A stretch of 64,000 nucleotides of DNA from NCBI GenBank assembly GCA_937870635.1, contig CALMZP010000083.1, positions 5,100-69,099 on the forward strand. Reading direction: 5' to 3'. Source of the DNA: an uncultured Acidobacteriota bacterium (GTDB lineage: Bacteria > Acidobacteriota > Thermoanaerobaculia > Gp7-AA8). Both the position numbers and the translations under genes were made by a program. The notes below the pieces were generated by a model. The model saw nothing but the letters and a program-made list of their open reading frames with translations, did no database searches and was not told the origin of the DNA. Shown in pieces: positions 31,453-56,775 of the stretch (positions are counted from its first letter, which is position 1; each line of letters starts with the position of its first letter).

Positions 31453-31620
31453 GGTGCTTGGTGCTTGGTGCTTGGTGCTGCGATGCGGGTCAGCCACGTC
31501 ATCCCGAGGCGCGAAGACGCCGAAGGACCCCCAGGATGCGAAGATCGCGTCGATCGAGGCCCTTCTCTGTCTACGCGGCTCAGGGTGACGTGATCACCAA
31601 GCACCAAGCACAAAGCACCG
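31453..31620. repeat. composite palindrome: GGTGCTT x4 arms flanking a cacgtcatcc...gaaggacc core
   Basis: Left arm 31453-31481, right arm 31594-31620 (inverted). The core is related to the 56569-56668 palindrome. Confidence 0.7.
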
Positions 31621-34233: not shown

Positions 34234-34316
34234 GATCCTGGACCCTGGACCTTGGAATTGAGAGTCGAATGAGTACTCACGTCATCCTCGGCCGCGAAGA
34301 CGGTCGAAGGACCTCC
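34234..34316. repeat. GGACCTTG-like units plus a half copy of the cacgtcatcc...gaaggacc core
   Basis: gatcctggaccctggaccttgg, then cacgtcatcctcggccgcgaagacggtcgaaggacctcc. Confidence 0.45.
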
Positions 34317-34384
34317 GGTTCCGCTCTGGATTGTTTCACAGCCTCTCAGTGTGGCGCCGGCGCCCTCGCCGGCGCCCGAGAAGC

Positions 34385-35254
34385 TCACTCGCGAATGGCC
34401 TGAACGATCCACCCGTCGCCGGTCAGGTTGTCAACAGTGGCGCCGTAGGCACTCCACATGCCGGGCGTTCCCTGCGGAATCACGCTGGCCAGGAGTGGTC
34501 CCCAATTTCCAGCGGGAACGCCCACCTGGGCCATCGAGCAGCTCGGAACATCGAATGTCGCCGTTCCCGGCCCCTGCGTTGTGAGACCGTAGATTTCAGC
34601 TACAAATCTCTGCGGCACGCCTGAGCTGTCGAGGTTCACGACCCCGACATTCGTTCGATATTGCGCGTCGTGGCGGAGACCGATGATGTAGGTGCGAACC
34701 GCGCCGGAGAGGTCGCTCGCCGATACACCGGGGAAAGGCATGGAAACGGATCCGGAGGCGTTCGGCTGCAGCGTCCAGATTCGGGAAACAGCATCGATCC
34801 GAGCGTTCGGATCGACGGCGCCGGCGGCCGTAACTCCGACGATGAGCAGCGCTCCAAGCCCGCTGGCATTCAGCGTCTTGCCGACGAAGTCATCGTAATA
34901 CCGCCAACCCGAACCGAGGTCGATGATCCTCGTCGGATTATTGCAGTTGTTCGCGCCGCTCGGCATCCAGGCGACTTCGACTCGTTGAGACGTCCGGTAA
35001 TTGATCAGCGAAAGGTCCGTTCGGAAGTGTGTCCCGCCCGCGCCGGGCGTGTTGCCGGCCGCCGGAATCAGGACGGCCCCGGCGGGACGATTCGTCGAAA
35101 CGACCGCCGCTCGGAACGAGGCGTCGAAATCGCGGAGCTCGTCGACGAGTTCTCCGACGGTTCTGCCACTGTGAGCGAATTGCGCCTCCGATGGGAACGC
35201 CCAGCCGGCGATGAAGACGAAAACAACGTAGAGCGATGCGCGTTTTGAGGTCAT
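34385..35254 (-). CDS. secreted hypothetical protein (no recognisable domain)
   Basis: Signal peptide MTSKRASLYVVFVFIAGWAFPSEAQ. Gly/Thr/Asn-rich mature part. Divergent from the ECF sigma operon. Confidence 0.5.
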   Translation of the reverse strand: MTSKRASLYVVFVFIAGWAFPSEAQFAHSGRTVGELVDELRDFDASFRAAVVSTNRPAGAVLIPAAGNTPGAGGTHFRTDLSLINYRTSQRVEVAWMPSGANNCNNPTRIIDLGSGWRYYDDFVGKTLNASGLGALLIVGVTAAGAVDPNARIDAVSRIWTLQPNASGSVSMPFPGVSASDLSGAVRTYIIGLRHDAQYRTNVGVVNLDSSGVPQRFVAEIYGLTTQGPGTATFDVPSCSMAQVGVPAGNWGPLLASVIPQGTPGMWSAYGATVDNLTGDGWIVQAIRE

Positions 35255-35387
35255 TCCTGTTCTCCTCGCTGCGAATTTGGGCAGCTATCAACAACTCCCA
35301 TGCAGCGAATACGTGCGGCATGGCATTTCGGAATAACTTGACGTCATCGCTTCATGAGCATACTTTTTCGGAAACCACAATCAATCA

Positions 35388-35885
35388 ATGTTGTTCCGTG
35401 CCGCCGCCTCGCACGTATCCGCCATGGGAGACTTTGAAGATCTCTACGAACAGCACGTGAATGCCGTCTTCCGGTTCAGCCTGAGCTGCGTCGGTCGCCG
35501 GGACGTCGCCGAAGACATCACCAGCGAAGCCTTTCTCGCTCTTTATCGAAAGCTGGACGAGATCGATCGGAATCAATTGCCGGCATGGCTGCTCACGGTG
35601 GCGAAGAATCGGGCCCGCGACTACTGGCGGCATCGCCAGGTGGAGGAGCGGCACACCCAGCAGCCGGCGACGACGCAGGAGCCTTCCATCACATCTCTGG
35701 AGAAGCTGTTGGCCGATGCGACTGTGCTCAAACCGGTTCACCGGCTTTGCCTCAAGCTTCGCTATGTCTACGGCATGTCGCTGTCCGAGATTACAGTGCA
35801 GACGGGCTTGTCCGAAACACAGGTGAAGGGTCACCTCCAGTACGGACGCCGGCTGCTGCGAGAGCAGTATCGGAAGGTGTCGTGA
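35388..35885 (+). CDS. ECF-type RNA polymerase sigma factor
   Basis: Sigma-70 region 2 (DLYEQHVNAVFRF...EDITSEAFLALYRK...AWLLTVAKNRARDYWR) and region 4 (MSLSEITVQTGLSETQVKGHLQYGRRLLRE). The alternative start is ATG 35424. Confidence 0.85.
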   Translation: MLFRAAASHVSAMGDFEDLYEQHVNAVFRFSLSCVGRRDVAEDITSEAFLALYRKLDEIDRNQLPAWLLTVAKNRARDYWRHRQVEERHTQQPATTQEPSITSLEKLLADATVLKPVHRLCLKLRYVYGMSLSEITVQTGLSETQVKGHLQYGRRLLREQYRKVS

Positions 35886-36649
35886 TGGTGAACCGCGCAC
35901 CGGTCTTCGATCCTGACGAGCAGCAATTCATGGAGGAGTTCGGCTTGAGGCCGCGTGAGGGCAGTTGTCCTCCGCTCGACCAGCTGCTCGCTGCGAACGC
36001 CGGCGCGATGTCCGGCGCTCATCTCGAGACCTGCGCCTCGTGCGCTGCGCTGGTCCGCGATTTCACGTCGAGCGAAGCGGCTGATCTGCAACCGCCGGAG
36101 AAGGAGCGAATTCGCACTCGCGTCCGCGACCGCATCAGGACCGACCGCCGCCGCGCCCTCGCCATACCGCTCGCCATCGCCGCGGCCGTGGCGATCGTCG
36201 TCATCGGTCTCTCGCTCTGGTCGCCGCCTCGCCCCGCGGATGCCCCGCCCCGATCGACACCCGTCGCGGCAACGGCCGGCGAGGGCGCCGTCGCCACACG
36301 GAGAACGCCGCCGTCCGTGCCCGCTCGAGCGCTCGAGCCCGCGCCGGTGCGATTGCCGGCGGCGATGCTCACCTGGCGCAACGATGCCGATCGCCAGTTC
36401 GCCGGCGACTTCGGCCCCGCCATCGCGCTCTACCGCGACGCAAAATACGCCGAGGCGGCGGAGCAATTCGAGCAGGTCTCCAGACGCCATCCCTCCTCCG
36501 CTGAGGCCTTCTTCTACCTTGGCGTCTCACAACTGTTCCTGCGACGTCACGCCGATGCGATCGCAAACCTGCAGCGCGCGAGACAGCTCGATCGCGGTGC
36601 ACTGTCGGATCTCATCGACCGGTATCTCGCATTTGCGCACCAAAGGTGA
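35885..36649 (+). CDS. anti-sigma factor (ZAS-like HxxxCxxC, single TM, periplasmic TPR-like domain)
   Basis: The start overlaps the sigma stop (TGATG). Motif HLETCASCAAL, TM segment ALAIPLAIAAAVAIVVIGLSLW, C-terminal TPR-like helices. Confidence 0.65.
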   Translation: MVNRAPVFDPDEQQFMEEFGLRPREGSCPPLDQLLAANAGAMSGAHLETCASCAALVRDFTSSEAADLQPPEKERIRTRVRDRIRTDRRRALAIPLAIAAAVAIVVIGLSLWSPPRPADAPPRSTPVAATAGEGAVATRRTPPSVPARALEPAPVRLPAAMLTWRNDADRQFAGDFGPAIALYRDAKYAEAAEQFEQVSRRHPSSAEAFFYLGVSQLFLRRHADAIANLQRARQLDRGALSDLIDRYLAFAHQR

Positions 36650-36655
36650 AACCCC

Positions 36656-39043
36656 ATGTCGATACCCCTGATCCTCGCGGCCGTTCTGATCAGTGGCAGT
36701 GAACCCGATTGTCTGATGGCTGCGCGCGCTCAGTACAAGGAAGCAACGGCGGCATTCAAGGCCAGTGATACGGATCGCGCGCGGAAGCTCTATCGCGAGG
36801 CGATCATGGCCTTCACAGAGTTGGAAGCATGGCCCGACTTGCTCAGGTCGTATCACGCCTATCTGTTCGTCGTACCTCATTCCGAGGAACACGACACGTT
36901 CACACGAGGCCTCGATCTCGCCCGCCGCCTGGGCAGTGAGCTTTTCGAAGGCCAGATCCTCCACGCGCACGCTGACAAAGTCTTCGGTCGCGGTGACTAT
37001 GCGCAATCAGCCGAGATCCTCGAAACGGCGATCGTTCTGCTCGAACGATCCGATGGCTCGATGTACCTCGCAGACGCTCTCACGAGTCTGGGACGTCTCC
37101 ACCGCGCTCACGGCCGGCCGGACCTTGCGTTGCCGATCTACGACCGAGCGTTGCGCATCCAGGAAGGGCTCGGCGCAGACCTGGCTGCGATCCAGACGAT
37201 CAACGCCATCGGCATCGCGTATCTGCATCTGGACCAACCGGAAAAGGCGCTCGAACAGTCCGAGCTCGGCTTGCGTAAAGCGCTTGAAACGAACTCCGCA
37301 CGCCACATCAACTTCATGCGCGGATCCGTAGCCGCCGCTCACATTTCGCTCCAGCAATACGAGAAGGCCATTCCGCTGCTGCAGCAGGTTCTCGCGGAAC
37401 CGATCACTCCGTATCTCGCCGCGTACCGCAACTTGAGTCTCGCGCAGGCGTACCTCGGTCTGGGCAGGTACACCGAAGCGATCGACGCGGCGGACAAAGC
37501 CATCGAGCTGTCAAAGGCTGCCGGAGTTGGAGTGGAACCGAAGCTCCCAGCGCTGTTTGCCCGCGCGAGGGCGAAGGCGAGGCTCGGGCGCCAGGCCGAG
37601 GCCATGGCCGACGTCGAGGAGAGTCTCCTCTCCATCGAGAACATACAGGCCAGGCTCGTCCCCGAGGATTTCATGAAGCGAGGATTCATCGATACGTATC
37701 AGACGGTCTTCGGACTCGCGATCGAGCTGCAGAGCGATCGCGGTGCGCATGCCGAGGCATTGCAGACGGCCGAGCAGGCGCGGGCGCGATCGTTTCTCGA
37801 CCTCCTGGCGACGCGCCAGATCGACCCTTCCCCTCTGGTCATGCGGAGCAGTTCCTCGCAGCCGGTGCTGCCGAGCTTCGTGTCCGCCGAGGCTCTGTCC
37901 GGCGAGGAGATCGCCGTCACCGCGCGCGATCTGCGATCCACATTGCTCATCTACTGGGTCAATGAAGACAAGACCTTCATCTGGGTCGTCGACCCCGATG
38001 GAACCATCCACGGCCGAACCGTGCGCATACGTGCGCAGCGTCTCGCCAGTCTGGTGCGACAGAGCTGGGAACAGACCGCTTCCACGCCGACACGCGGGCT
38101 TCTTCTCCGCGGCGGAGAGACGATGACGATCGCGAGGATGGAGCGAACGGCGTGGGCCGAGCTCTATCGCCATCTGATCCTGCCGGTGCGGGACCTCCTT
38201 CCGTCGCAGCGCGGAAGCCTGCTGACCGTCATTCCACATGGGCCATTGTTTCGCCTCTCCTTCGCCGGTCTTCTGGATGAGAAGGACCGCTACCTGGTCG
38301 AGTCGTACGCGATTCACTCCGCGCCGGCGGTCTCGGTTCTGCGATTCATCGCCTCGCGAACGGACGATCGGGACGCGGATGGATACCTGCTTCTCTCGAA
38401 TCCTCGCTTCGGCGCGCCGCCCGACACGAAGGCGCTACCGGCGCTCCCCGGATCAGAGCGCGAAGTGAAATCGATCGCACGACTCCTTAGCAACGAAACA
38501 CGGACGATCCTCAACGGCGGCAACGCCTCGGAGAAAGAGCTTCGAAAGTCGATCGAGGGAAAAGCGGTCCTTCATTTCGCCACACATGGGATCGTGCGGG
38601 ACGATCAGACGCTCGATTCCTTTCTGGCGCTTGCCGCCGGCGACGGTGACAAGAGCAATGACGGCCGCCTCACCGCTGAAGAGATCTACACGCTGAACCT
38701 CGACGCTGATCTCGTCGTCCTCAGCGCCTGCCGGAGCGCGCTCGGAAAAGTATCGGGTGACGGCGTAGCCGGCTTCACCCGGGCGTTCTTCTACGCCGGA
38801 GCGGCGTCGGTGGTGGCAACGCTGGGGGACGTGGCCGACGAGCCGACGTCCTCGCTGCTGCGCGACTTCTATCAGGCGCTGCGCAACGGTTGGTCAAAGA
38901 GCCGCGCCCTTCGCAGCGCGCAACTGGCCATGCTGCGGCGCCTGCGCGCGGGCGAGGTGACCGTCCAGACCATGGCCGGCCCGGCCACACTTCCCGAACA
39001 CCCGATTTTCTGGGCGAGTTTTGTCCTGCAGGGGAGGCCTTGA
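36656..39043 (+). CDS. TPR-repeat plus CHAT-domain (caspase-like) protein
   Basis: N-terminal about 450 aa of TPR repeats. The C-terminal CHAT domain has a His (HFATHGI) and Cys (LVVLSACRSALG) dyad. RBS aaggtga before the ATG. Confidence 0.85.
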   Translation: MSIPLILAAVLISGSEPDCLMAARAQYKEATAAFKASDTDRARKLYREAIMAFTELEAWPDLLRSYHAYLFVVPHSEEHDTFTRGLDLARRLGSELFEGQILHAHADKVFGRGDYAQSAEILETAIVLLERSDGSMYLADALTSLGRLHRAHGRPDLALPIYDRALRIQEGLGADLAAIQTINAIGIAYLHLDQPEKALEQSELGLRKALETNSARHINFMRGSVAAAHISLQQYEKAIPLLQQVLAEPITPYLAAYRNLSLAQAYLGLGRYTEAIDAADKAIELSKAAGVGVEPKLPALFARARAKARLGRQAEAMADVEESLLSIENIQARLVPEDFMKRGFIDTYQTVFGLAIELQSDRGAHAEALQTAEQARARSFLDLLATRQIDPSPLVMRSSSSQPVLPSFVSAEALSGEEIAVTARDLRSTLLIYWVNEDKTFIWVVDPDGTIHGRTVRIRAQRLASLVRQSWEQTASTPTRGLLLRGGETMTIARMERTAWAELYRHLILPVRDLLPSQRGSLLTVIPHGPLFRLSFAGLLDEKDRYLVESYAIHSAPAVSVLRFIASRTDDRDADGYLLLSNPRFGAPPDTKALPALPGSEREVKSIARLLSNETRTILNGGNASEKELRKSIEGKAVLHFATHGIVRDDQTLDSFLALAAGDGDKSNDGRLTAEEIYTLNLDADLVVLSACRSALGKVSGDGVAGFTRAFFYAGAASVVATLGDVADEPTSSLLRDFYQALRNGWSKSRALRSAQLAMLRRLRAGEVTVQTMAGPATLPEHPIFWASFVLQGRP

Positions 39044-39044
39044 G

Positions 39045-39191
39045 GATTCACCACAGAGGCACAGAGGACACAGAGTTCGTTCCGAAAGGCCATGCGTTTT
39101 ACGAAGGGATCCGTCACTCGTCACTCGTCACTCGTCACTCGTCACTCGTCACTCGTCACTCGTCACCCAAAGGTCCAAGGTCCGAGGTCAC
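39045..39191. repeat. mixed tandem repeats: CACAGAGG x3, CGTCACT x7, then (C)AAGGTCC units
   Basis: Visible in sequence immediately after the CHAT gene stop. The CGTCACT-AAGGTC combination also occurs at 28226-28250. Confidence 0.6.
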
Positions 39192-39231: not shown

Positions 39232-40245
39232 GTGTTCTCGCGCGACCGCCTTCTCCAGCTCACTGAAGCCATGCAGGGGAAGCTCGTGGTCGTCTACGGC
39301 GACATCGTGGCGGACCGCTTCATCTACGGAACACCGAAGCGGATCTCTCGCGAAGCGCCGGTGCTCATCCTCCGTCAGTATCGCGACGACGTGCTTCTGG
39401 GCGGTGCGGGCAACGCGATGAACAACATCCTCGCGCTCGGCGGACTCCCGATCCCGGTCTCCGTGGTCGGCGCCGACGCGGAAGGCGATGCGCTGATCGA
39501 GCGCCTGACCGCGCAAGGCATCGACTGCAGCGGCGTCCTGCGGGTCGAGCGCTACAAAACTCCCACGAAAGTGCGCATCCTCGGCGGCATGCCTCACGCG
39601 GCGCGGCAGCAGATCGTGCGCTATGACATCGAGGATTCACTCACGATCACCGAACAGGAAGCCGATCGCTTCGCGTGGCTGCTGCGCGATCAGATCTCGA
39701 TCTGTCACGCGGGACTCATCAGCGACTACGGTTATGGGGTCGTCACGCCGTCGCTCGCCTCGAACCTCACCGGATACTCGAGGGGAAAACCGGTGACGCT
39801 CGATTCGCGGTATGACCTGTTGCGGTATCCCGATGTCACCGCCGCCACGCCAAACGAAGAGGAGGCGGCGGCCGCGGCTGGAATGTCCCTCGCGGAGGAT
39901 GACGGCGGCGAGAATGCGGAGTTCGTGGGACAGACGCTGCAGCAGAGCCTCGATTGCGAAGCGATTCTGATCACGCGCGGAAGCCGCGGGTCAATGCTGC
40001 TCGAGCGCGGCGGGAGGCCGGTGTTCCTTCCCGTTCACGGCACCGACCAGGTGGCGGATGTCACCGGCGCCGGGGACACGGTCATTGCCTCGTTTACGCT
40101 CGCACTCGCCGCCGGTGGCTCGTACCTCGAGGCCGCGAAGCTGGCCAATTACGCCGGCGGCATCGTGGTCATGAAGATGGGAACGGCCACCGCATCGAAC
40201 GAAGAGCTTCGCCACGCGATCGAGCGCGACGAGGGGCTGGAGTAA
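39232..40245 (+). CDS. hldA: D-glycero-beta-D-manno-heptose-7-phosphate kinase (RfaE domain I / HldA-like, PfkB family)
   Basis: PfkB ribokinase-like signature (GGAGNAMNN; DVTGAGDTVIASFTLALAAG). GTG start. Confidence 0.85.
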   Translation: MFSRDRLLQLTEAMQGKLVVVYGDIVADRFIYGTPKRISREAPVLILRQYRDDVLLGGAGNAMNNILALGGLPIPVSVVGADAEGDALIERLTAQGIDCSGVLRVERYKTPTKVRILGGMPHAARQQIVRYDIEDSLTITEQEADRFAWLLRDQISICHAGLISDYGYGVVTPSLASNLTGYSRGKPVTLDSRYDLLRYPDVTAATPNEEEAAAAAGMSLAEDDGGENAEFVGQTLQQSLDCEAILITRGSRGSMLLERGGRPVFLPVHGTDQVADVTGAGDTVIASFTLALAAGGSYLEAAKLANYAGGIVVMKMGTATASNEELRHAIERDEGLE

Positions 40246-40312
40246 TTTTGGATTTGCGATTTTGGATTTTGGATTGAACCCCAAATCCAAAATCCAAAAT
40301 CCAAAATCGAAA
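40246..40312. repeat. TTTTGGA/TCCAAAA inverted-arm palindrome between hldA and hldC
   Basis: ttttggatttgcgattttggattttggattg aacccc aaatccaaaatccaaaatccaaaatcgaaaa. Confidence 0.75.
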
Positions 40313-40801
40313 ATGACAACAAACGCTCCTATCGTCGAAGAAGCTGAGTTGACCCGAATCGTCGAAGAAGAACGCCGGGCCGGACGCACGATTGCATTCG
40401 CCAACGGCGTCTTCGACATCCTCCACGTCGGCCATGTGCGTTATCTCCAGGGAGCGGCCGCGGTCGCGGACCGGCTGATCGTGGCGGTCAACAGCGACGA
40501 ATCGGTCCGCGAGCTCAAGGGCGCGGGCCGCCCGGTGACGGGTGAGCGGGAACGCGCCGAGATCATCTCCGCGATCCGCGGTATCTCCTGGGTCACCATC
40601 TTCCGGGAGAAGAGTCCGGCGCGCCTTCTCGCCGTGCTGCGCCCCGACTTTCAGGCGAAGGGGACTGATTACACGCCCGACACCGTGCCGGAGGCCTCCA
40701 TCGTGCGAGGGTACGGCGGGAAGGTCGTGATCGTGGGCGATCCGAAGGATCACTCGACGACCGATCTCCTCCATCGGATGAAGAAGAGCCCGGGGAACTG
40801 A
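40313..40801 (+). CDS. hldC: D-glycero-beta-D-manno-heptose-1-phosphate adenylyltransferase (RfaE domain II / HldC-like)
   Basis: Cytidylyltransferase-like motif (FANGVFDILHVGHVRYLQ...ISW). Start at MTTNAP, because the upstream ORF part lies in the palindrome. Confidence 0.85.
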   Translation: MTTNAPIVEEAELTRIVEEERRAGRTIAFANGVFDILHVGHVRYLQGAAAVADRLIVAVNSDESVRELKGAGRPVTGERERAEIISAIRGISWVTIFREKSPARLLAVLRPDFQAKGTDYTPDTVPEASIVRGYGGKVVIVGDPKDHSTTDLLHRMKKSPGN

Positions 40802-42817: not shown

Positions 42818-44533
42818 ATGAGCGTACGCCTCGGCGAACTGCTGACTAAAGCCGGGCTGATCAATCAGGATCAGCTCAAAGATGCACTCAAGGTGCAGAA
42901 GGAAACGGGCAGCAAGCTCGGTGAGACCCTCATCAAGCTGGCCTTCGTGACCGAAGAAGACATCACCGAATGCCTTTCCCAGCAGTTCGGCGTTCCTTCG
43001 ATCAACCTCTCTCACTTCGAGATCGATCCCAGCGTCATCAAGCTGATCCCGGCTGACGTCGCGCGTAAGTACAACATCCTTCCGGTCAACAAGCCGGGGG
43101 CGACGATCACCATCGCCATGGCCGATCCGACGAACGTGTTCGCCATGGACGACATCAAGTTCATGACCGGCTACAACGTCGAGCCGGTCGTGGCCTCGGA
43201 ACTGGGGATCAAGGCCGCCATCGACAACTACTACGGGTCGACGTCATCGCTCGAGCTGAAGAAGGTCATGGAAGACCTTCAGCAGACCGAGGCCGCGGAC
43301 CTCGAGGTTCTCGAAGAGGAAGAAGAGCTGGATGTAGCGGCTCTGGCGGAAGGCGCGGAAGAGGCGCCGGTCGTCAAGCTCTGCAACCTGATCCTGACCG
43401 ACGCCATCAAGCGCGGCGCGTCGGACATTCACATCGAGCCTTACGAGAAGGAGTACCGCGTCCGGTTCCGCGTCGACGGCACGCTGTACGAGATCATGAA
43501 CCCGCCGCTCAAGCTGCGCGACGCCATCACCTCGCGCATGAAGATTCTGGCGAAGCTCGACATCTCGGAGAAGCGCCTCCCGCAGGACGGGCGCATCAAG
43601 CTGAAGATGAAGCTCAACGACAAGAACAAAGAGCTCGACTTCCGCGTGTCGGTGCTGCCGACGCTCTTCGGCGAAAAGATCGTCATGCGTCTTCTCGACA
43701 AGGACAACCTTCGTCTGGACATGACCAAGCTCGGCTTCGAGCCGGAGTCGCTGGCGGTTTTCGAAGAGGCGATTTTCAAGCCGTGGGGCATGGTGCTCGT
43801 GACCGGGCCGACAGGATCGGGCAAGACCAATACGCTCTATTCGGCGCTGTCGAAGGTGAACTCGCCCGAAGTGAACATCATGACCGCCGAGGATCCGGTG
43901 GAGTTCAACCTTCCGGGGATCAATCAGGTGCAGATGAAGGAGTCGATCGGGCTGAATTTCGCCGCGACGCTCCGGTCGTTCCTCCGGCAGGATCCGAACA
44001 TCATCCTGGTGGGCGAGATCCGCGACTTCGAAACGGCGGAGATCGCGATCAAGGCCGCACTCACGGGGCACCTCGTGCTCTCCACGCTTCACACGAACGA
44101 CGCCCCCTCGACGATCAACCGTCTGATGAACATGGGGATCGAGCCGTTCCTGGTGGCTACGTCCGTGCAGCTGATCGCCGCGCAGCGCCTGGCGCGGCGC
44201 ATCTGCGGCGCCTGCAAAGAGGTGGTGGACGTGTCGCCGCAGGCGCTCATCAACCTCGGATACAAGAAGGATGAGGTGGGGACGTTCACCGTCTACAAGG
44301 GGCGGGGCTGCGACAAGTGCAACAACACCGGTTACAAGGGGCGGGTGGGCCTGATCGAGGTCATGAAGATCGACGACGACCTCCGGGAGCTCATTCTCTC
44401 GGGCGGGACGGCCATCGACATCAAAAAGAAAGCGGCGGAAAACGGCATGATCAGCCTTCGCCGTTCGGGTTTGGTTAAAATCAAGGACGGTGTCACGACG
44501 ATTGAAGAAGTCGTCCGGGAGACCGTGCTGTAG
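42818..44533 (+). CDS. pilB: type IV pilus assembly ATPase PilB (GspE family)
   Basis: N-terminal GSPII domain, Walker A GPTGSGKT, and the tetracysteine motif C..C...C..C. Confidence 0.9.
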   Translation: MSVRLGELLTKAGLINQDQLKDALKVQKETGSKLGETLIKLAFVTEEDITECLSQQFGVPSINLSHFEIDPSVIKLIPADVARKYNILPVNKPGATITIAMADPTNVFAMDDIKFMTGYNVEPVVASELGIKAAIDNYYGSTSSLELKKVMEDLQQTEAADLEVLEEEEELDVAALAEGAEEAPVVKLCNLILTDAIKRGASDIHIEPYEKEYRVRFRVDGTLYEIMNPPLKLRDAITSRMKILAKLDISEKRLPQDGRIKLKMKLNDKNKELDFRVSVLPTLFGEKIVMRLLDKDNLRLDMTKLGFEPESLAVFEEAIFKPWGMVLVTGPTGSGKTNTLYSALSKVNSPEVNIMTAEDPVEFNLPGINQVQMKESIGLNFAATLRSFLRQDPNIILVGEIRDFETAEIAIKAALTGHLVLSTLHTNDAPSTINRLMNMGIEPFLVATSVQLIAAQRLARRICGACKEVVDVSPQALINLGYKKDEVGTFTVYKGRGCDKCNNTGYKGRVGLIEVMKIDDDLRELILSGGTAIDIKKKAAENGMISLRRSGLVKIKDGVTTIEEVVRETVL

Positions 44534-44551
44534 GGCTCTGGGAGAAGATCA

Positions 44552-45679
44552 ATGGCAGTCACACTGCATCAGTTGCTGAAGACCATGGTCGAGCGTGGAG
44601 GAAGCGATCTTCACGTGACGACCAATTCCGCGCCGCAGATCCGCATCGACGGCAAGCTCGTTCCGCTGGACATGCCGGCGCTGACGGCTCCGGAGACCAA
44701 GCAGCTGGCGTATTCGGTGCTCACGGACGCGCAGAAGCACCGCTTTGAAGAGAACCTCGAGCTCGATCTTTCGTTCGGCATCAAGGGACTGGCGCGGTTC
44801 CGGGCCAACATTTTCAACCAGCGCGGCGCGACCGCCGCTGTCTATCGTCAGATTCCCTACGAGATCCTCAGCTTCAAAGATCTGGGACTTCCCGCCGTCG
44901 TCGAGGAGATCTGCGCGAAGCCGCGCGGGCTCGTCCTCGTGACGGGGCCGACCGGCTCCGGCAAATCGACGACGCTCGCCGCGATGATCGACAAGATCAA
45001 CCGAGAGACGCATCAGCACATCATCACGATCGAGGATCCGGTGGAGTTTCTCCACTCGCACAAGAACTGCGTGGTGAACCAGCGCGAGCTGCACGCCGAC
45101 ACGCATTCGTTCGGCAACTCGCTCAAGTCCGCGCTGCGCCAGGATCCGGACGTGGTGCTCATCGGTGAGATGCGCGACCTCGAGACCATCGAGTCCGCGC
45201 TGCGCATCGCCGAGACGGGCCACCTGACCTTCGGCACGCTCCACACGAACTCCGCCGCACAGACGATCAACCGCGTCGTCGACGTTTTTCCCGCTCACCA
45301 GCAGCCGCAGATTCGCGCGCAGCTGTCGTTTGTTCTGGAAGGGATCATGTGCCAGGCCCTTCTTCCGAAGGCGAACGGCAAGGGCCGCGTGATGGCCATG
45401 GAGATCCTGGTTCCGAACGCCGCCATCCGCAATCTCATCCGCGAGGACAAGGTCCACCAGATCTACTCGATGATGCAGACCGGCCAGGCGAAGTACGGGA
45501 TGCAGACCTTCAATCAGTCTTTGGCCACGCTGTACTTCAAGAAGCACATCTCGCTACAGACGGCGCTCAGCCGTTCATCGAATCCCGACGAGTTGCAGGA
45601 AATGATCTCGCGCGGGGCAGGAGCCATTCAGCAACAGCAGCCGGGCGGCGGTCCCGCGCGGCCGCAGCGGCCAGCGTAA
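44552..45679 (+). CDS. pilT: twitching-motility retraction ATPase PilT
   Basis: GSDLHV N-terminus, Walker A GPTGSGKST, and the PilT C-terminal region. Confidence 0.9.
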   Translation: MAVTLHQLLKTMVERGGSDLHVTTNSAPQIRIDGKLVPLDMPALTAPETKQLAYSVLTDAQKHRFEENLELDLSFGIKGLARFRANIFNQRGATAAVYRQIPYEILSFKDLGLPAVVEEICAKPRGLVLVTGPTGSGKSTTLAAMIDKINRETHQHIITIEDPVEFLHSHKNCVVNQRELHADTHSFGNSLKSALRQDPDVVLIGEMRDLETIESALRIAETGHLTFGTLHTNSAAQTINRVVDVFPAHQQPQIRAQLSFVLEGIMCQALLPKANGKGRVMAMEILVPNAAIRNLIREDKVHQIYSMMQTGQAKYGMQTFNQSLATLYFKKHISLQTALSRSSNPDELQEMISRGAGAIQQQQPGGGPARPQRPA

Positions 45680-45693
45680 CGCCGGCCGGAAGC

Positions 45694-45897
45694 GAGTAGG
45701 AGGAAGCAATGCCGACATTCGAGTGGAAGGTCGGCAAGTTCATGCCGAGCGTAGCGAGGCATCAGCGGTACCGGGCGGAGCAGGCGCGACCTGCTGGAAG
45801 GTAATGAGTCAGGGCTTCGGGTTCCGGAGATCCCTCGCTTCGCTCGGGATACAGTCGTTGGAGTAGGAGGAAGCAATGCCGACATTCGAGTGGAAGG
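45694..45897. repeat. 37-bp perfect direct duplication of the pilC RBS, start and first 7 codons, flanking a 130-bp insert with a ccctcgcttcgctcggga hairpin
   Basis: gagtaggaggaagcaatgccgacattcgagtggaagg at 45694-45730 and again at 45861-45897. The upstream copy opens a 31-codon decoy ORF. Confidence 0.7.
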
Positions 45898-47078
45898 GCA
45901 GAGGGCGGAACGGGCAGGACCAGACGGGTATGCTGGTCGCCGACTCGAAGGAAGCCGTGATCGCGATGATGCGGCGGCAGCAGGTCGTCGTCACCGCGGT
46001 CAAAGAGAAAGGGAAGGAGATCGCGCTGCCGAAGTTCGGCGGCAAGGTTCCACCCCAGCTCATCGCAATCTTCACCCGCCAGTTCTCGGTCATGATCGAC
46101 GCGGGCCTGCCGCTCGTGCAGTGCCTGGAGATTCTCGGCTCGCAGCAGGAACACAAGAATTTCAAGCGCTCGCTCATCCAGATCCGGCAGGACGTCGAAG
46201 CGGGTTCGAGCCTCGCCGACGCGATGCGCAAGCATCCCAAGACGTTCAACGATCTCTACACGAACATGGTGGCCGCCGGCGAGGCGGGCGGTATTCTCGA
46301 CACGATCCTGCAGCGCCTCGCGGCCTACATCGAAAAGGCCGTGAAGCTGAATTCGCAGGTCAAGTCGGCCATGATCTACCCGGTGGCCGTCATCTCGATC
46401 GCGGTCATCGTCGTGGCAGTCATTCTCTGGAAGGTCATCCCGGTGTTCGCCTCTCTCTTCGCCGGCCTCGGTGCAGAGCTGCCCACGCCGACCCTGATCG
46501 TCATCGCTCTCTCGAATTTCATCGGTGACTGGTGGTGGGCAATCGGCCTTGGCGGCATCATCACGACGTTCTCGCTGCGGCGGTATCACGATACTTACAA
46601 GGGCAAGCGCGTCCTCGACGGTCTCCTGCTGAAAGCGCCGGTCTTCGGCCTGCTTCTCCGCAAGATTGCCGTGGCCCGGTTCTGCCGCACGCTCTCGACG
46701 CTGACGTCCTCCGGTGTTCCCATCCTCGACGGCCTGCAGATCACGGCGAAGACCGCCGGCAACTCCGTCGTCGAAGACGCGATCATGTCCACCCGCAAGT
46801 CGGTCGAAGAAGGCAAGACGATCAGTGAGCCTCTCGGCGACACCGAAGTGTTCCCGTCGATGGTCATCCAGATGATCGCCGTCGGTGAGCAGACCGGTGC
46901 TCTCGACACGATGCTCTCCAAGATCGCCGACTTTTACGAAGACGAAGTCGACCTCGCGGTCGCCGGCCTGATGAAACTCCTAGAGCCGATTCTCATCGCC
47001 TTCCTCGGCGTGGCGATCGGCGGCATCGTCATCGCCATGTACATGCCGATGTTCTCGCTCATCGGTCAGATGGGATAA
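45876..47078 (+). CDS. pilC: type IV pilus inner-membrane platform protein PilC (GspF family)
   Basis: Two GspF repeats and 3 TM segments. A GGAGG RBS is present in the duplicated leader. Confidence 0.9.
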   Translation: MPTFEWKGRGRNGQDQTGMLVADSKEAVIAMMRRQQVVVTAVKEKGKEIALPKFGGKVPPQLIAIFTRQFSVMIDAGLPLVQCLEILGSQQEHKNFKRSLIQIRQDVEAGSSLADAMRKHPKTFNDLYTNMVAAGEAGGILDTILQRLAAYIEKAVKLNSQVKSAMIYPVAVISIAVIVVAVILWKVIPVFASLFAGLGAELPTPTLIVIALSNFIGDWWWAIGLGGIITTFSLRRYHDTYKGKRVLDGLLLKAPVFGLLLRKIAVARFCRTLSTLTSSGVPILDGLQITAKTAGNSVVEDAIMSTRKSVEEGKTISEPLGDTEVFPSMVIQMIAVGEQTGALDTMLSKIADFYEDEVDLAVAGLMKLLEPILIAFLGVAIGGIVIAMYMPMFSLIGQMG

Positions 47079-47107
47079 CACCCGGCGACAGAAGCATGCA
47101 TTCGGAA

Positions 47108-47138
47108 GGGGCGACGGAAACGTCGCCCCGATTTTTTG
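47108..47138 (+). terminator. rho-independent terminator after pilC
   Basis: ggggcgacggaaacgtcgccccgatttttt, followed by a second small hairpin catccctcgcttcgctcgggatg. Confidence 0.65.
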
Positions 47139-47206
47139 CATCCCTCGCTTCGCTCGGGATGTGCGTATGCTTAATACGAGCAGCACCAGGCACCAGGCAC
47201 ACGATC

Positions 47207-48868
47207 ATGAACACCATGCCCACAGATGCCCGGATGATGATGGCCATCCGGGTCATCGTCGTGACGACGCTCCTCCTCGTCACGCTGATCATTCAGTACA
47301 CCGTCACCGAGATCCTGCCCATCAACTATCTCTATCTCGTCGCAGGTCTCACTTACCTTCTCACGCTCACTTACATCGCTCTCGGGCGGCTCATCCGGTC
47401 GCGCGAGATCAACCTGCTGATCCAGATCGGCGGCGATCTCCTGGTGGAGACGCTCCTGGTGTACTTCACGGGCGGCCTCGATTCGCCCTTCTCCTTTCTC
47501 TATCTCGTCTCGATCATCGCCGCGTCGATGCTTCTCTATCGCCGTGGCGGCCTTCTGGCTGCTTCCGGGGCGGTCATCCTCTACGGCCTGCTCGGAGACC
47601 TGATGTACTACGGGATTCTTCCTCTTCCGGAGCAGACCTGGTTCATCCCCACGCCGTGGACGTCGTCTCGTCTCTACTTCAACATGGCCACGAACTTCGC
47701 GGGCTTTTACGCCACGGCGCTGCTGACGTCGCTCATCTCGGAAAAACTTCAGAAGACCTTCAAGGAGCTCGACGCCAACCGTCAGAACCTGGCCGAACTC
47801 CGCGCGCTCAACCAGAACGTCATCGAGTCGATCCCCTCCGGCCTCATCACGATCTCGACTTACGGGTCGGCGTCGTTCATCAATCCCGCCGGCTGTCAGA
47901 TCCTTCAGACCCAGGCGCACGAAGTCCTCGGCCGTCACGTCACCGAGCTGGCGTTCTTCACGGTCGAAGAGTGGAGTGAGGTCCGCGAGGCGCTCGACGG
48001 CGGCGCGCTCGTGCGCCGCGAGAAGGAGGTCGATGTTCCTGGCGGCCGCCGCACGATTGGATTCGCTCTGACGCCGTTGCGGACGCTCGACGGGAAGGCG
48101 TCCGGGTACACGCTCATCTTTCAGGACCTCACCGAGATGAAGAAACTGGAAGGGGAGATTCGACTCAAGGACCGCATGGCCGCGGTGGGCGAGCTGTCGG
48201 CCGGCATCGCCCACGAGATCCGGAATCCGCTCGCCGCGATCGCGGGATCCGTCCAGGTTCTCAAGAACTCGAAAGCGCTCACGCCACAGGAAGAGCGTCT
48301 GATGTCGATCGTGCTCAAGGAGTCGGAGCGGCTCAACAAGACCATCGCCGACTTCCTCCGCTTCGTCCGTCCCCAGGAAAAGCGCGCGGCGGAATTCGAC
48401 GTCGCTGCGTCGCTCTCCGAAACGCTCGATCTCCTGGCGAACTCTCCCGAACTGCAGAAGCACGAGATCCGGCGCGAGATCGAGCCGCCTTCGTTCCATA
48501 TCGTCGGCGATGCCGATCAGATCCGTCAGGTGTTCTGGAATCTCGTCCGCAATGCCGTGCAGGCGATGCCTGAGGGCGGCGTCATGACGGTGAGGACCGA
48601 GGTGGAGGCCGAGACGTATCGGATCGTGTTTGCGGACAGCGGACGCGGGATGTCGCGTGGCGAGCTGCAGCGCCTCTTTCAACCGTTCCGAACTTCGTTC
48701 CCTTCGGGCACCGGTCTCGGCATGGCAATCTGCTATCGCATCGTGCAGGAGCACGGCGGCTCGATCGAAGTGCAATCGTGGCAGGGCGGGGGGACGGCGG
48801 TGACCGTCGTTCTGCCAGCGACGGTGTCGGAGCAGGGAGCCCGTCCCCTGCCTGCAGCTAGATTTTAG
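47207..48868 (+). CDS. PilS-like sensor histidine kinase (polytopic membrane N-term, PAS, HisKA, HATPase_c)
   Basis: Six-TM N-terminal domain like PilS, H-box GIAHEIRNPL, and N/G1/G2 boxes. Start at MNTMPTD. Confidence 0.8.
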   Translation: MNTMPTDARMMMAIRVIVVTTLLLVTLIIQYTVTEILPINYLYLVAGLTYLLTLTYIALGRLIRSREINLLIQIGGDLLVETLLVYFTGGLDSPFSFLYLVSIIAASMLLYRRGGLLAASGAVILYGLLGDLMYYGILPLPEQTWFIPTPWTSSRLYFNMATNFAGFYATALLTSLISEKLQKTFKELDANRQNLAELRALNQNVIESIPSGLITISTYGSASFINPAGCQILQTQAHEVLGRHVTELAFFTVEEWSEVREALDGGALVRREKEVDVPGGRRTIGFALTPLRTLDGKASGYTLIFQDLTEMKKLEGEIRLKDRMAAVGELSAGIAHEIRNPLAAIAGSVQVLKNSKALTPQEERLMSIVLKESERLNKTIADFLRFVRPQEKRAAEFDVAASLSETLDLLANSPELQKHEIRREIEPPSFHIVGDADQIRQVFWNLVRNAVQAMPEGGVMTVRTEVEAETYRIVFADSGRGMSRGELQRLFQPFRTSFPSGTGLGMAICYRIVQEHGGSIEVQSWQGGGTAVTVVLPATVSEQGARPLPAARF

Positions 48869-48928
48869 ATTTTGGATTTTGGATTTTGAGACGAATCCAA
48901 AATCCAAAATCCAAAATCTAAAATCCAA
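48861..48928. repeat. TTTT(A/G)GA inverted-arm palindrome
   Basis: gattttagattttggattttggattttgag acg aatccaaaatccaaaatccaaaatctaaaatcc. Confidence 0.75.
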
Positions 48929-48958
48929 TCGAGTCGCCAAGAGCTAGACTAACTCCCA

Positions 48959-49981
48959 GTGACCGACCGCATCCTGACTCCCACCGCCGATCCCGAAGAG
49001 CTCCAGACCGAACTTTCCCTCCGCCCCAAGAAGCTCCGCGAGTACATCGGGCAGCAGAAGGTGAAAGCCAATCTGGAGATCTCGATCGCGGCCGCGCGGA
49101 AACGGGGTGAGGCGCTCGACCACGTCCTTCTCTTCGGCCCGCCCGGACTCGGCAAGACCACGCTCGGAAACATCATCGCCAACGAGATGGACGCGAATAT
49201 CCGGACGACTTCCGGCCCGGCGCTCGAGCGTCCGGGAGATCTGGTCGCCATCGTCACGAATCTGGAGGCCGGCGAAGTGCTCTTCATCGACGAGATCCAC
49301 CGTCTGCCGGCTCAGGTTGAAGAAGTCCTGTACTCGGCGATGGAAGACTTCTACGTCGATGTGGTGATCGGTCAGGGCCCGGCTGCGCGCACGCTCAAGG
49401 TCGAGGTTCCGCGGTTCACGCTGATCGGTGCGACGACCCGGGCCGGACTTCTCACCGCCCCGCTGCGCGCGCGCTTCGGGATCGTTCACCGTCTCGACTT
49501 CTATGACGTCGATTCGCTGGAGGTCATCGTCCGGCGGTCCGCGGAGATCCTGAACATCCCCATTACGCTCGAAGGTTCGAAGGAGATCGCCCGCCGGTCG
49601 CGCGGTACGCCGCGAATCGCGAACCGCCTGCTGCGCCGCGTCCGTGATTACGCCGAAGTGAAGCGCGAAGGTCGCATCGACGTGGAGATCGCGCGCGAAG
49701 CGCTGCACATGCTCGAAGTCGATGACTACGGCCTCGATGACGTCGATCGCAAGCTGCTGACCGCAATCATCGAGCGCTTCAGTGGCGGCCCCGTCGGCCT
49801 CAACGCCCTAGGATCATCCGTCGCCGAAGATCGGGGAACGATCGAAGATCTCTATGAGCCCTACCTGATCCAGATCGGCTTCCTGCAGCGAACCCCCCGA
49901 GGCCGCGTCGCGACGAAGCTCGCCTACGATCACCTCGGTTACAAACTGGGGGCGACGAGAAAGCAGGAGGAGTTGTTTTGA
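48959..49981 (+). CDS. ruvB: Holliday junction branch-migration helicase RuvB
   Basis: LRP..L..YIGQ, Walker [10 protein letters not shown], and the RuvB C-terminal winged helix. Confidence 0.95.
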
Positions 49982-50092
49982 AGTTTGTTCCCCAGTTCAT
50001 GCTGAGCGAAGCGAAGCATCTCCGGTGCACCTGCTGCCATGAACTTTGTTCCGCGTCAGTGCACCGGAGATCCTTCGCTTCGCTCAGGATAG
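49981..50092. repeat. nested palindrome (catgctgagcgaagcgaagcatctccggtgcac ... gtgcaccggagatccttcgcttcgctcaggata)
   Basis: Visible in sequence between ruvB and the convergent methyltransferase. Confidence 0.65.
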
Positions 50093-50677
50093 ACTCGTGT
50101 CCCTCAAGTACCACTCGAGCGGTTCGGCAAGGTAACCCGGTGCCGTGCCCCCGCGGCCCCATGCTTCGACGATGAGGATGTGCGAGAGGCTGTCGAAGTC
50201 GGGATTCTGCTCGTGGCTCTCCAGACCCCGCAGTTCCGGATGCTCGCTCTCGCCGTAGCTGCACCGCACCACTTCGGCGAAACCGGCGGCGCGCAGCGTT
50301 GCTGACAGCGTTCCCCAGTTGTAGAGGAACTGGTGTCCCCATCCACGAAAGGCCCGGTTGATGCCGAACGCGCCGAGGACCTGCTGCTCCTCGGTGAGGA
50401 CGCGACGGTAGTGGGACGCCCAGACCCAGTCGAGATTCGGCGTGGAGAGGCGCAGAACACCGTCATCGCGCAGAGCGCGCCGGCATTCGCGGAACAGCGA
50501 GGCCGCATCCGCGTAGTGCAGATGCTCGATGAAGTGCTCGGCGAAGATGAACGCAACGTTCTCGAAGGGAAAGCCTGTCGTGACGTCCAGAACCTGGTCG
50601 ACCCCGGGGTGAGGGTCACGGTCGATGTTGACCCAGCCGTCGAGGTGATGGGGTCCCGATCCGATGTGAAGGCGCAT
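50084..50677 (-). CDS. class I SAM-dependent methyltransferase
   Basis: Motif I near the N-terminus (LHIGSGPHHLDGWVNID), RDDGVLRLSTPN. The ATG at 50677 is preferred; the longer ORF runs through the TTTTGGA palindrome. Confidence 0.7.
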   Translation of the reverse strand: MRLHIGSGPHHLDGWVNIDRDPHPGVDQVLDVTTGFPFENVAFIFAEHFIEHLHYADAASLFRECRRALRDDGVLRLSTPNLDWVWASHYRRVLTEEQQVLGAFGINRAFRGWGHQFLYNWGTLSATLRAAGFAEVVRCSYGESEHPELRGLESHEQNPDFDSLSHILIVEAWGRGGTAPGYLAEPLEWYLRDTSLS

Positions 50678-50698
50678 GTGGGGCGGTATGATGGCAGT

Positions 50699-50810
50699 GA
50701 TTTTAGATTTTGGATTTTGGATTTTGGATTTTGGATTGGTATTTCTTCGATCCATCATGCGGAATCCAGGTCGAAGAGAAATCCAAAATCCAAAATCCAA
50801 AATCCAAAAT
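50699..50810. repeat. TTTTGGA inverted-arm palindrome with 40-nt spacer
   Basis: gattttagattttggattttggattttggattttggattgg ... gaaatccaaaatccaaaatccaaaatccaaaa. Confidence 0.75.
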
Positions 50811-52173
50811 GATTCTCCTGGTCGTCGTGTTGCTCGCAGTGGGTGTGCCGGTCGCAGCGCAGGCGGCCCAGGATCCCTATCAACTTCCTGAGACACTTGC
50901 CGCCGCTCGGCGGTTCGACGAGGCGGAGGCCGCGTACAGGCGGGGGCTTCGTGAGCGTCCGAACGACTGGCGCCTTCGGCTCGGCCTGGCGCGAGTTATC
51001 CTGTGGGACGGCCGTTACCGGGAGGCGGACAAGGCATTCGCAGCTCTCGTCGCCGAGCGGCCTGCTGACGACGATGCGCTACTTGGATATGCCCAGGCGG
51101 CCTACTGGAGCGGCGATTTTCGCCGTGCGCGCCGGAGGTACGAGCGTCTTCTCGAAGTCGATCCCGCGCATGCGGAAGCGAAGAAAGCACTCTCCGATAT
51201 CGCGCTGCTGAGCGCTCCCGGGTATGAGGTCGGCGCAACCTTTCGCGACGATTCGCAGCCCTATCGGGTATCGATGATGCGTGCGAAGGTCTCATACTTC
51301 TCCGACCCGCTCGTGAGATGGGACGTGATCGGCGGAGTGGGCCAGGTTCCCGACGGCGGGAGCTCGATGGCCAGCGTGGGAGCGGGAGTCTCCGCCACCT
51401 TCCCGCGGGTGCGATCGAGGGTCGAGGCGAGTGGCGAGCGATTCCGATTCCCCGACGGATTCAGCGCGACCCTCGGCGAAGTCACGCTCACCCGCACCCT
51501 GCCGGCCCAGAGCGCGCTGGTCCTGTCGGCCCGACGCACGCCATTGCTCGGAACGGTTTTTTCCGTCGACGACCACGAGACGGTGTCCCAGTACTCGCTT
51601 TCGTGGCGGCGCGATCCCGCGGCGCGCTGGCTGGCCGCGGTGGGCGCGCACTCGCTCGATTACTCCGACGGCAACAGAGGCTCGGGTGCCGATGCCTGGT
51701 TCGTGGCTCCGGTCTTCGAGCGCGACTCGCTGATGCTTCGCGCGGGCGTATCCGCCGCATGGCGCGACACGGAGCTCGACCGCTTCCGCTTCACGACGTT
51801 CCGCTCGGAACAGGCGAGTCCCGGCGTCTGGCGGTACACGTACACCGGTGTGTACGATCCGTACTGGACGCCACACGAGCTGAAGGAGGGGAGGGTAGTG
51901 GTGGTGGCCGAGATACCGCGTCTGAAGATCCACGCGGATGCCGGCTACGCACGAGACCGCGCCCTCGGGTTCGGGCCGCGCACGGGAGCGGCACCCAACC
52001 CGCTCTTCATCCATCCGAGCATGCAGGAGCGGTCGTTCCGGCCCTGGCGTGCCGGTGCCGAAATCACGTGGCCCCTCGCGACCGGGATCGAGTTACGCGC
52101 GCGGTATGCGCACGAAGTGACCGCCTTCTACAACGCGAATGAGTTCGAAGCGAGCCTGGTCGGACGACTCTGA
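50809..52173 (+). CDS. TPR-repeat protein with predicted C-terminal beta-barrel (PgaA/BcsC-like exopolysaccharide export candidate)
   Basis: Signal peptide MILLVVVLLAVGVPVAAQA, about 150 aa of TPR helices, then alternating-hydrophobic beta-rich region ending in an aromatic residue. The functional call is inferred from domain order and the downstream GT2. Confidence 0.5.
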   Translation: MILLVVVLLAVGVPVAAQAAQDPYQLPETLAAARRFDEAEAAYRRGLRERPNDWRLRLGLARVILWDGRYREADKAFAALVAERPADDDALLGYAQAAYWSGDFRRARRRYERLLEVDPAHAEAKKALSDIALLSAPGYEVGATFRDDSQPYRVSMMRAKVSYFSDPLVRWDVIGGVGQVPDGGSSMASVGAGVSATFPRVRSRVEASGERFRFPDGFSATLGEVTLTRTLPAQSALVLSARRTPLLGTVFSVDDHETVSQYSLSWRRDPAARWLAAVGAHSLDYSDGNRGSGADAWFVAPVFERDSLMLRAGVSAAWRDTELDRFRFTTFRSEQASPGVWRYTYTGVYDPYWTPHELKEGRVVVVAEIPRLKIHADAGYARDRALGFGPRTGAAPNPLFIHPSMQERSFRPWRAGAEITWPLATGIELRARYAHEVTAFYNANEFEASLVGRL

Positions 52174-56504: not shown

Positions 56505-56509
56505 CTTTT

Positions 56510-56775
56510 GAAGGATGAAGGATGAAGGATGAAGGATGAAGGATGAAGGATGAAGTGGAAACGACGAGCCACGTCATCCTGAGCCGCGCAGACGGCGAAG
56601 GACCTCAGAGTACGTAACTTGAGGTCCTTCGCTGTCTGCGCAGCCCAGGATGACGTGGTGAACTTCCTTCATCCTTCGTCCTTCATCCTTCATCCTTCAT
56701 CCTTCATCCTTCATCCTTCATCCTTCATCCTTCATCCTTCATCCTTCATCCTTCGTCCTTCATCCTTCATCCTTC
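56510..56775. repeat. composite palindrome: GAAGGAT x8 / ATCCTTC x13 arms around a cacgtcatcctgagccgcgcagacggcgaaggacctcaga ... tgaggtccttcgctgtctgcgcagcccaggatgacgtg core
   Basis: Visible in sequence; the largest element in the window (about 265 bp). Confidence 0.8.

Follow-up and report, generated by a model that had tools for sequence, protein, structure and literature searches.

We found that the pilC gene in the 64-kb stretch of DNA analyzed here (hereafter the window) probably carries at its start an inserted repeat element of the SRM/CGTC-REP type, which would have been delimited by an Ssn-type nuclease and joined by host repair with a 37-bp duplication, and whose allele would have survived because the duplication restored the start of the gene. 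The repeat class as such has already been described and the only unusual feature of this locus is the long duplication that preserves pilC. The features of the locus are as follows (coordinates refer to the window).

42818-44533: pilB
44552-45679, plus strand: pilT (375 aa, T2SSE ATPase, from the ORF list), upstream of the insertion
45694-45730, plus strand: first copy of the 37-nt repeat, with RBS GGAGG, ATG at 45709, pilC codons 1-7 and base 1 of codon 8
45709-45804, plus strand: 31-codon ORF (MPTFEWKVGKFMPSVARHQRYRAEQARPAGR), which runs from seven pilC codons through the left arm to a TAA (45802-45804) in the spacer
45731-45860, no strand assigned: inserted element, a head-to-head dimer of two hairpin motifs of about 32 nt (from the empty site, the paralogue after ruvB and the fold)
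45737-45768, plus strand: left motif, with tag AGTTC, stem ATGCC, core GAGCGTAGCGA, stem GGCAT and tail CAGCGG
45769-45823, no strand assigned: spacer (loop) between the motifs, specific for this copy
45824-45855, minus strand (the motif reads forward on this strand): right motif, ACTGT ATCCC GAGCGAAGCGA GGGAT CTCCGG
45861-45897, plus strand: second copy of the 37-nt repeat, with the functional RBS and start of pilC
45876-47078, plus strand: intact pilC (400 aa, T2SSF, from the ORF list and the alignment of homologues)
47108-47137, plus strand: intrinsic terminator after pilC
47140-47160, minus strand: solo motif after the pilC terminator, ATCCCTCGCTTCGCTCGGGAT, 21 nt identical to 45830-45850
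48868: end of a gene for a PilS-like kinase
48959-49981: ruvB
49994-50095, no strand assigned: second full head-to-head dimer, after ruvB, without flanking duplication

An exact 37-bp duplication at the pilC start had been reported in the initial annotation, and both its coordinates and its description were right. The 37-mer GAGTAGGAGGAAGCAATGCCGACATTCGAGTGGAAGG occurs exactly twice in the window (45694-45730 and 45861-45897) and the distance between the two copies corresponds to the 130 bp of the insert (45731-45860). When 100 dinucleotide-preserving shuffles were analyzed in the same way, there was no match even with three mismatches tolerated, and the repeat at the pilC start is the sole close non-tandem direct repeat of at least 15 nt in the window. 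The second copy had been considered the real pilC start and this assignment holds, since it opens the 400-aa ORF of PilC. The protein encoded there can be aligned across its entire length (100%) to hundreds of homologues of 400 aa that carry the annotation PilC of Thermoanaerobaculia (Acidobacteriota). The first copy provides, as described before, an RBS and an ATG that open a 31-codon ORF with its stop inside the insert (45709-45804). This copy is now a leftover.

For comparison with related genomes, the pilT-pilC junctions of related contigs were gathered via PilC and PilT homologues and 11 junction contigs were obtained (L001, L076, L077, L083-L086, L088-L091; L001 is the same contig as L078 and L087). 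A PilT protein identical to that of the window is encoded on five related contigs. Here, we found that all 11 contigs carry one unbroken stretch of RBS, ATG and the following codons up to GGAAGG-GCAGAG (...GGAGGAAG..ATGCCGACATTCGAGTGGAAGGG(C/G)AGAGGGCGG), and that the insert and the duplication were present in none of them. These data indicate a lineage-specific insertion with a true target duplication, and the earlier proposal that a small hairpin element had inserted with an unusually long target duplication is thereby confirmed. The initial annotation had asked whether the spacer is 15 nt long at the site without the insert; in the closest relatives (98% identical in PilC and 100% in PilT) it is 17 nt long (taa-tggcgtaggaggaagca-ATG). 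The 20-kb relative L078 shares only about 90% DNA identity with the window while the two 37-mers are 100% identical, and thus the event is young, much younger than the split of these genomes. In other words, the repeat is a recent duplication rather than a pair of diverged ancient copies. Contig L076 starts near the left edge of the 37-mer, and the idea that this start represents an assembly bubble of the same insertion was dropped because L088-L091 cross the site cleanly.

Scans of metagenome contigs (metagenome_contigs) with a 22-mer of the insert spacer and with a 29-mer of the duplicated target gave no match, and neither a donor copy nor a second instance or an intermediate allele was found in these metagenome scans. 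An assembly artefact or strain chimera, in which two strain variants were joined or a repeat copy was misplaced so that no molecule carries both 37-mers, is improbable. The sequence does come from a metagenome-assembled genome of Thermoanaerobaculia (Acidobacteriota), in a lineage that is rich in polymorphic intergenic hairpins, and the insertion was seen in no other sample of the metagenome scans, but the assembler needs both junction sequences to be present in the reads, and the 37-nt repeats lie 167 nt apart, which is less than a typical read or a large k-mer. Moreover, for a chimera the same 130-bp copy would have had to insert twice, independently and in two strains, at positions 37 bp apart.

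The insert itself is an imperfect long palindrome, the arms of which (45742-45772 and 45820-45850) are 81% complementary, and when folded as DNA it reached -32.1 kcal/mol (z = -3.8). The two motifs face outward, head to head; their stems differ from each other but each is internally complementary. Over 72 arms outside the search pattern the stems covary (ATCCT/AGGAT, ATCCC/GGGAT, ATGCT/AGCAT, ATTCT/AGAAT): at the pair 5-17 we counted 30 TA, 25 CG and 7 GC in the 72 independent arms, and most arms have AT at the pair 1-21 and TA at the pair 2-20. This covariation indicates that the individual motif is conserved and not merely the long hairpin. The predicted fold of an arm consists of a 5-bp stem plus a mini-hairpin.

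Copies in the window are located after ruvB, after pilC and after pilT. The dimer after ruvB is a much better hairpin than the pilC insert (-37.3 kcal/mol, z = -8.3). At the site after pilC there is the solo motif, of which a longer form is present at the same site in L001, and this solo motif is older. The initial annotation had noticed that the insert and the site after pilC share a hairpin motif; the sharing was correct, but the common sequence comprises 21 nt and not 28 nt. A possible origin of the insert as remnant of a tandem duplication of the pilC 3′ end, to which weak matches (47032-47049, 47140-47160) had drawn attention, was rejected, as the alignment shares the solo repeat arm only. 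Similarly, a 19-nt likeness of the insert spacer to pilC codons 10-15 was judged a chance similarity of GC-rich sequence. An Rfam scan of 44000-51000 yielded only sub-threshold matches to microRNA hairpin models and none at 45694-45897.

Similarity at the level of the family ends 5 nt past each stem, at AGTTT...AAACT, and thus the pilC insert carries extra nucleotides at its ends, 6 nt (TCGGCA) on the left and 5 nt (CGTTG) on the right. Reverse complementation of the left-hand TCGGCA gives TGCCGA, a sequence contained both in codons 1-3 of pilC and in the stem of the arm itself (45710-45748), and for the left arm alone the predicted fold favours an alternative TCGGCA/TGCCGA hairpin. ATGCCGA is contained in both the pilC start and the left arm, and GGAAG is found just upstream of the first copy (45688-45692) and at the end of the repeat (45725-45729). 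These short identities may be joining microhomologies or may have arisen by chance.

Is the duplication a general property of the family? When the left flank was compared with the right flank in each of 23 other full-length dimers, the longest exact match was 4-11 nt, compared with 5-8 nt in mismatched-flank controls, and the two longest matches were situated far from the element ends or within adjacent copies. When 530 kb of fetched loci were searched for close direct repeats, none was found that flanks a dimer and the only candidates were tandem copies of the element. Thus, neither the 23 other full copies nor the 530 kb displayed a fixed target-site duplication as expected for a MITE. The 37-bp duplication, the evidence for which comes from one locus in one metagenome-assembled genome, is a one-off and not a hallmark of the family.

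These data bear on two other scenarios. One of them is a conventional MITE moved by a DDE-type transposase with long target duplications, as exemplified by the IS1634 group of elements. The insert shares with MITEs that carry target-site duplications a short non-coding sequence, inverted ends and a flanking direct repeat, and its ends nearly match the ends of the palindrome. In a MITE family a constant short duplication accompanies each copy, whereas here the duplication is long (37 bp) and was found at 1 of 24 copies, the other 23 having no flanking repeat above the control level. Moreover, the arms accompany GIY-YIG genes and not transposase genes (see below), and each arm is a conserved covarying hairpin as in REP-type repeats. 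Taken together, we consider a MITE origin very improbable.

The second scenario involves two steps. The element would have inserted without duplication, either just upstream of the RBS or inside pilC, and a later template switch or slippage across the hairpin would have copied 37 nt to the other side; if the element had landed in the gene and inactivated it, the later copy would represent a compensatory mutation. That the 23 other full copies lack a flanking duplication is consistent with this sequence of events, and so are the microhomologies at the junctions (GGAAG, TCGGCA versus TGCCGA). The same is true for the position of the right junction. In L077 and L086 the pilT-pilC spacer contains unrelated heptamer-repeat palindromes that end 14-15 nt upstream of the ATG, which is exactly where the insert has its right junction. 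However, two rare events would be needed where one suffices, no intermediate allele was detected in the 11 related contigs or in the metagenome scans, and slippage across a hairpin normally deletes sequence and does not duplicate a flank. We therefore regard a two-step origin as unlikely.

The spacer between pilT and pilC seems to be a favoured site for hairpins, and a small hairpin is also present there in L083-L085, the PilC of which is 96% identical to that of the window. The 14 nt between the pilT stop and the first copy of the repeat (45680-45693, cgccggccggaagc) resemble the 3′ part of this hairpin-bearing spacer (...gccgggagctgaagc), which suggests an earlier hairpin at the pilT-pilC site that was partly deleted.

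To which class of repeats does the element belong? The 27 nt of the right motif (45824-45850; pattern CCGGAGATCCYTCGCTTCGCTCRGGAT) were found without mismatch at 74 or more genome loci (genome_contigs), in MAGs assigned to Acidobacteriota, Planctomycetota, Chloroflexota, Gemmatimonadota, Burkholderiales, Legionella, Bacteroidia, Omnitrophota, Bacillota, Actinomycetes and Rhodothermales. The identical arm thus occurs in MAGs of more than 10 phyla, and all of the matches listed (at least 74) were MAGs. Most copies of the family take the form of short dimers, in which 40-110 nt separate the arms. Four cases (one each in L063 and L069, two in L072) have arms at a distance of about 370 nt, and their loop holds an ORF of about 100 aa, which matches the GIY-YIG family (Pfam PF01541, E = 6e-13 to 6.5e-16) and has arms on both sides. 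The GIY-YIG gene of L063 (Thermoanaerobaculia) is bordered by AGTTTATCCCGAGCGCAGCGAGGGATCTCCGG on one side and by the 27-mer of the pilC insert on the other, and its product is 42% identical to the Neisseria gonorrhoeae homologue of meningococcal ssnA. A fifth GIY-YIG ORF with arms on both sides is present in a Rhodothermales MAG (L062, 46-395); its arms have the opposite relative orientation to those of the four Acidobacteriota cases, with the tails pointing outward.

When one of these ORFs was compared by tblastn with PLSDB, it matched small genes of cultured bacteria annotated as "GIY-YIG nuclease family protein", among them genes of Novosphingobium, Sphingobium, Sinorhizobium, Azospirillum, Neisseria, Rhizobium and Shinella. 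At all four loci examined in cultured species (Neisseria, Sinorhizobium, Azospirillum, Novosphingobium) the gene is flanked by inverted CGTC-type palindromes of the respective species. The pairs of gene and repeat in these isolates are homologous and the arm sequences are species-specific. A repeat-ssn-repeat module of Sinorhizobium meliloti (L081, 345-719) is 79% identical to that of Shinella plasmids; the homology stops at the flanking repeats and the surrounding DNA is unrelated, which gives the impression of a module that is mobile as one unit. Among S. meliloti records no usable pairs of filled and empty sites were obtained for the presence or absence of SRM dimers. A BLAST search of the consensus element against the PLSDB plasmids gave no match, and a literature search by sequence string retrieved no matching paper.

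Two published descriptions are relevant here. In Neisseria, the motif NTS (CGTCATTCCCGCGMAVGCGGGAATCYRG) and "Ssn-related motifs" (SRM) flank ssnA, which encodes a 94-aa GIY-YIG protein with homologues across phyla; Ssn binds the motif as single-stranded DNA and cuts the variable flank a few nucleotides upstream (Chenal et al., 2025, Nat Commun, PMC11893778). Mobility of the motif-ssn-motif units is put forward there as a hypothesis only, and the idea of a domesticated mobile element is raised (PMC11893778). The CGTC-tagged REPs have stems that start with AT, mostly form head-to-head dimers near gene 3′ ends, are sometimes intragenic and "apparently lack a dedicated transposase" (Di Nocera et al., 2013, PMC3733652). 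Since the same motif flanks small GIY-YIG genes in relatives, as it does in cultured species, we place the element in the described Ssn/SRM class, which corresponds to the CGTC-tagged REPs.

The individual properties were compared with these descriptions. The same motif on both sides of an ssn gene (single-domain GIY-YIG of about 100 aa, cd10448 clade) was found in relatives but not in the window, and no ssn gene was detected in these 64 kb. The insert arms are semi-palindromes with an orienting 5′ flank and a conserved C (ATGCC...GGCAT-C, ATCCC...GGGAT-C). They start their stems with AT/TA, both full copies in the window are head-to-head dimers, and their location is intergenic near gene 3′ ends. 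An unpaired CGTC tag (or TGTC/CCTC) is absent from the insert, which carries AGTTC and CTGT; most Acidobacteriota copies have the tag AGTTT, and CGTCATCC versions of the same core occur at other loci, in the same genomes and at 56569-56658 of the window. The published SRM pattern (HGTCWYN(0-2)YYVSBRHN(0-5)WNVSBRGN(0-2)RNCYNB), which had been compiled manually on the basis of 29 genomes from 4 phyla (PMC11893778), does match the Neisseria, Sinorhizobium and Azospirillum loci, but gave no match in the window or in L063, L069 and L072. The Acidobacteriota arm type thus falls outside the published sequence definition, and its place in the class is assigned by association and architecture.

With the SRM (PMC11893778), the element has in common an oriented hairpin arm in which a 5′ tag is combined with a stem that begins with AT and in which a C directly follows the palindrome, as well as the many copies, most of them intergenic, and the occurrence of the motif on both sides of a single-domain GIY-YIG gene of about 100 aa (L063, L069, L072). 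The arm AGTTTATCCYGAGCGAAGCGARGGATCTCCGG differs from the SRM in its tag and in its stem-loop, which is longer and mismatched, and the published pattern misses this arm. Moreover, mobility was hypothesized in that paper, whereas at the pilC locus filled and empty sites and a 37-bp target duplication can be compared directly, although the window lacks ssn. With the CGTC REPs (PMC3733652), the arms share the short palindrome, the unpaired tag, the AT start of the stem, head-to-head dimers, the occurrence in several phyla and the lack of a known transposase. The CGTC REPs have stems of 8-9 bp and loops of 4-5 nt, whereas in the arms described here a stem of 5 bp is combined with G/A mismatches and a mini-hairpin (GCGAAGC). 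The subfamily carries the tag AGTT instead of CGTC, and no flanking duplication is reported in PMC3733652.

Other palindromic repeats resemble the element in part. REPINs and RAYT transposases (Bertels & Rainey, 2011, PMC3116915) have the same architecture, in which two inverted REP hairpins enclose a spacer, many copies are present and the repeats also lie on either side of a single-copy enzyme gene. The REPIN system differs in its enzyme, which is an HUH tyrosine transposase and not a GIY-YIG hydrolase, in its tag (GTAG) and in its sequences. Rickettsia palindromic elements and intragenic REPs (summarized in PMC3733652) are palindromic repeats of the same superfamily that insert within a gene or at its 5′ end and leave it functional. 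In those cases the element is translated in frame and contributes additional amino acids (PMC3733652), whereas pilC was rescued by a duplicated start.

For the event at pilC we propose the following scenario. In the lineage of the window only, a copy of the element integrated after the first base of pilC codon 8, and a 37-bp stretch of the target that extends from position -15 relative to the ATG into codon 8 was duplicated. The duplication places a complete RBS, the start and the first codons downstream of the insert and thus leaves pilC intact. An Ssn-type nuclease may have released or delimited the inserted piece. On either strand, the insert extends 5-6 nt beyond the conserved tag, on the side on which Ssn cuts. 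In a head-to-head dimer both strands have a forward motif at the element's 5′ end, and therefore the expected Ssn cuts would bracket the element a few nt outside its tags. The distance between junction and tag (5-6 nt) differs from that of the meningococcal enzyme of Neisseria (3 nt).

GIY-YIG nucleases hydrolyse DNA and have no joining activity. Host repair must therefore do the joining, and every integration step is something we infer. The 37-bp duplication would have arisen during this repair and not via a transposase with a fixed stagger, and two routes may be envisaged. Either the piece was joined into a break with 37-nt staggered ends and both gaps were filled in, or, at a replication fork, ligation placed hairpin DNA between the growing strand and a flap of 37 nt that had been displaced. 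If the flap length is usually zero, the second route would explain why most copies lack a duplication. A more far-reaching reading is that the locus represents a fresh footprint of the way in which SRM/CGTC-REP dimers spread, as Ssn-delimited units pasted as hairpin DNA into a gap or flap at the fork. The mobilized unit would then be bounded 5-6 nt outside each outward motif, at the cut of a nuclease for single-stranded DNA, and the length of the displaced flap (mostly 0, here 37 nt) would set the length of the target duplication. We put this reading forward as a tentative possibility. As to the survival of the allele, it would have persisted since the duplication restores the pilC start: an insertion after pilC codon 7 without a rebuilt start would destroy the gene, and this selection explains why the event is seen.

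What are the consequences for pilC? A scan for sigma-70-like promoters yielded none in or near the insert, and there is no terminator-like U-tract at its hairpin, which means that this hairpin does not represent a terminator. The second RBS is situated beyond the hairpin, at a distance of 10 nt. For these reasons pilC is probably still co-transcribed and translated. A stable hairpin is likely to be present in the pilT-pilC transcript and may alter mRNA stability. For pilus biology the insertion is probably close to neutral, since pilC retains an RBS and a start of its own. Direct repeats that flank a palindrome are prone to precise deletion, and thus the allele may revert by slippage between the 37-bp repeats.

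A selected regulatory device, with the 31-codon ORF as leader peptide or the hairpin as attenuator of pilC, is highly improbable in our opinion. Such a function would fit the perfect RBS and ATG of the first copy, the fact that ribosomes translating the ORF would open the left hairpin arm, and the recurrence of several kinds of hairpins in the pilT-pilC spacer of relatives. However, none of the 11 related contigs has the ORF or the duplication, the peptide past residue 7 is simply the repeat read in one frame, no U-tract follows the hairpin and the second RBS is located outside of it. The leader peptide suggested as an alternative in the initial annotation is not borne out by these data (ORF in 0 of 11 related contigs, reading into the repeat past codon 7), and judging from its sequence the 31-codon ORF is a meaningless by-product.

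The repeat class and its nuclease have been described only recently, and whether and how the repeats move is still a hypothesis. The pilC locus offers clean filled and empty sites with identical flanks, and the boundaries of the insert can be read to the base, from which testable predictions on the cut positions and on the integration step can be derived. In addition, the published SRM pattern misses a subfamily that is common in Acidobacteriota, and SRM counts of genomes obtained with this pattern will leave this subfamily out.

Hairpins of other kinds were also seen in the window. Palindromes with arms of tandem heptamers (such as GATTTTG, GGTGCTT, GAAGGAT, CGTCACT and GGCCTCG), which in many cases enclose an Ssn-motif hairpin at their centre, are located at 11658-11711, 31453-31600, 39112-39160, 40243-40322, 48858-48928, 50695-50821 and 56509-56781, and in relatives at 1410-1485 and 2705-2800 of L077 and at 14067-14361 and 20669-20899 of L078. 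When the window was compared with L078, which is about 90% identical, different heptamers or elements were found at nearly every orthologous intergenic site, which implies a very fast turnover. In L078 two genes overlap by GTGA (4643-4646), whereas in the window a 79-bp palindrome of the GATTTTG type lies between the same genes (40243-40322). Here, the downstream gene has a new ATG and two extra codons. This is a further example of a hairpin that inserted at a tight gene junction with re-creation of a start codon, in this case without a duplication. Finally, about 4.9 kb of the window (34256-39165) are without counterpart in the otherwise collinear L078, and the right border of this segment is formed by the CGTCACT array at 39112-39160.
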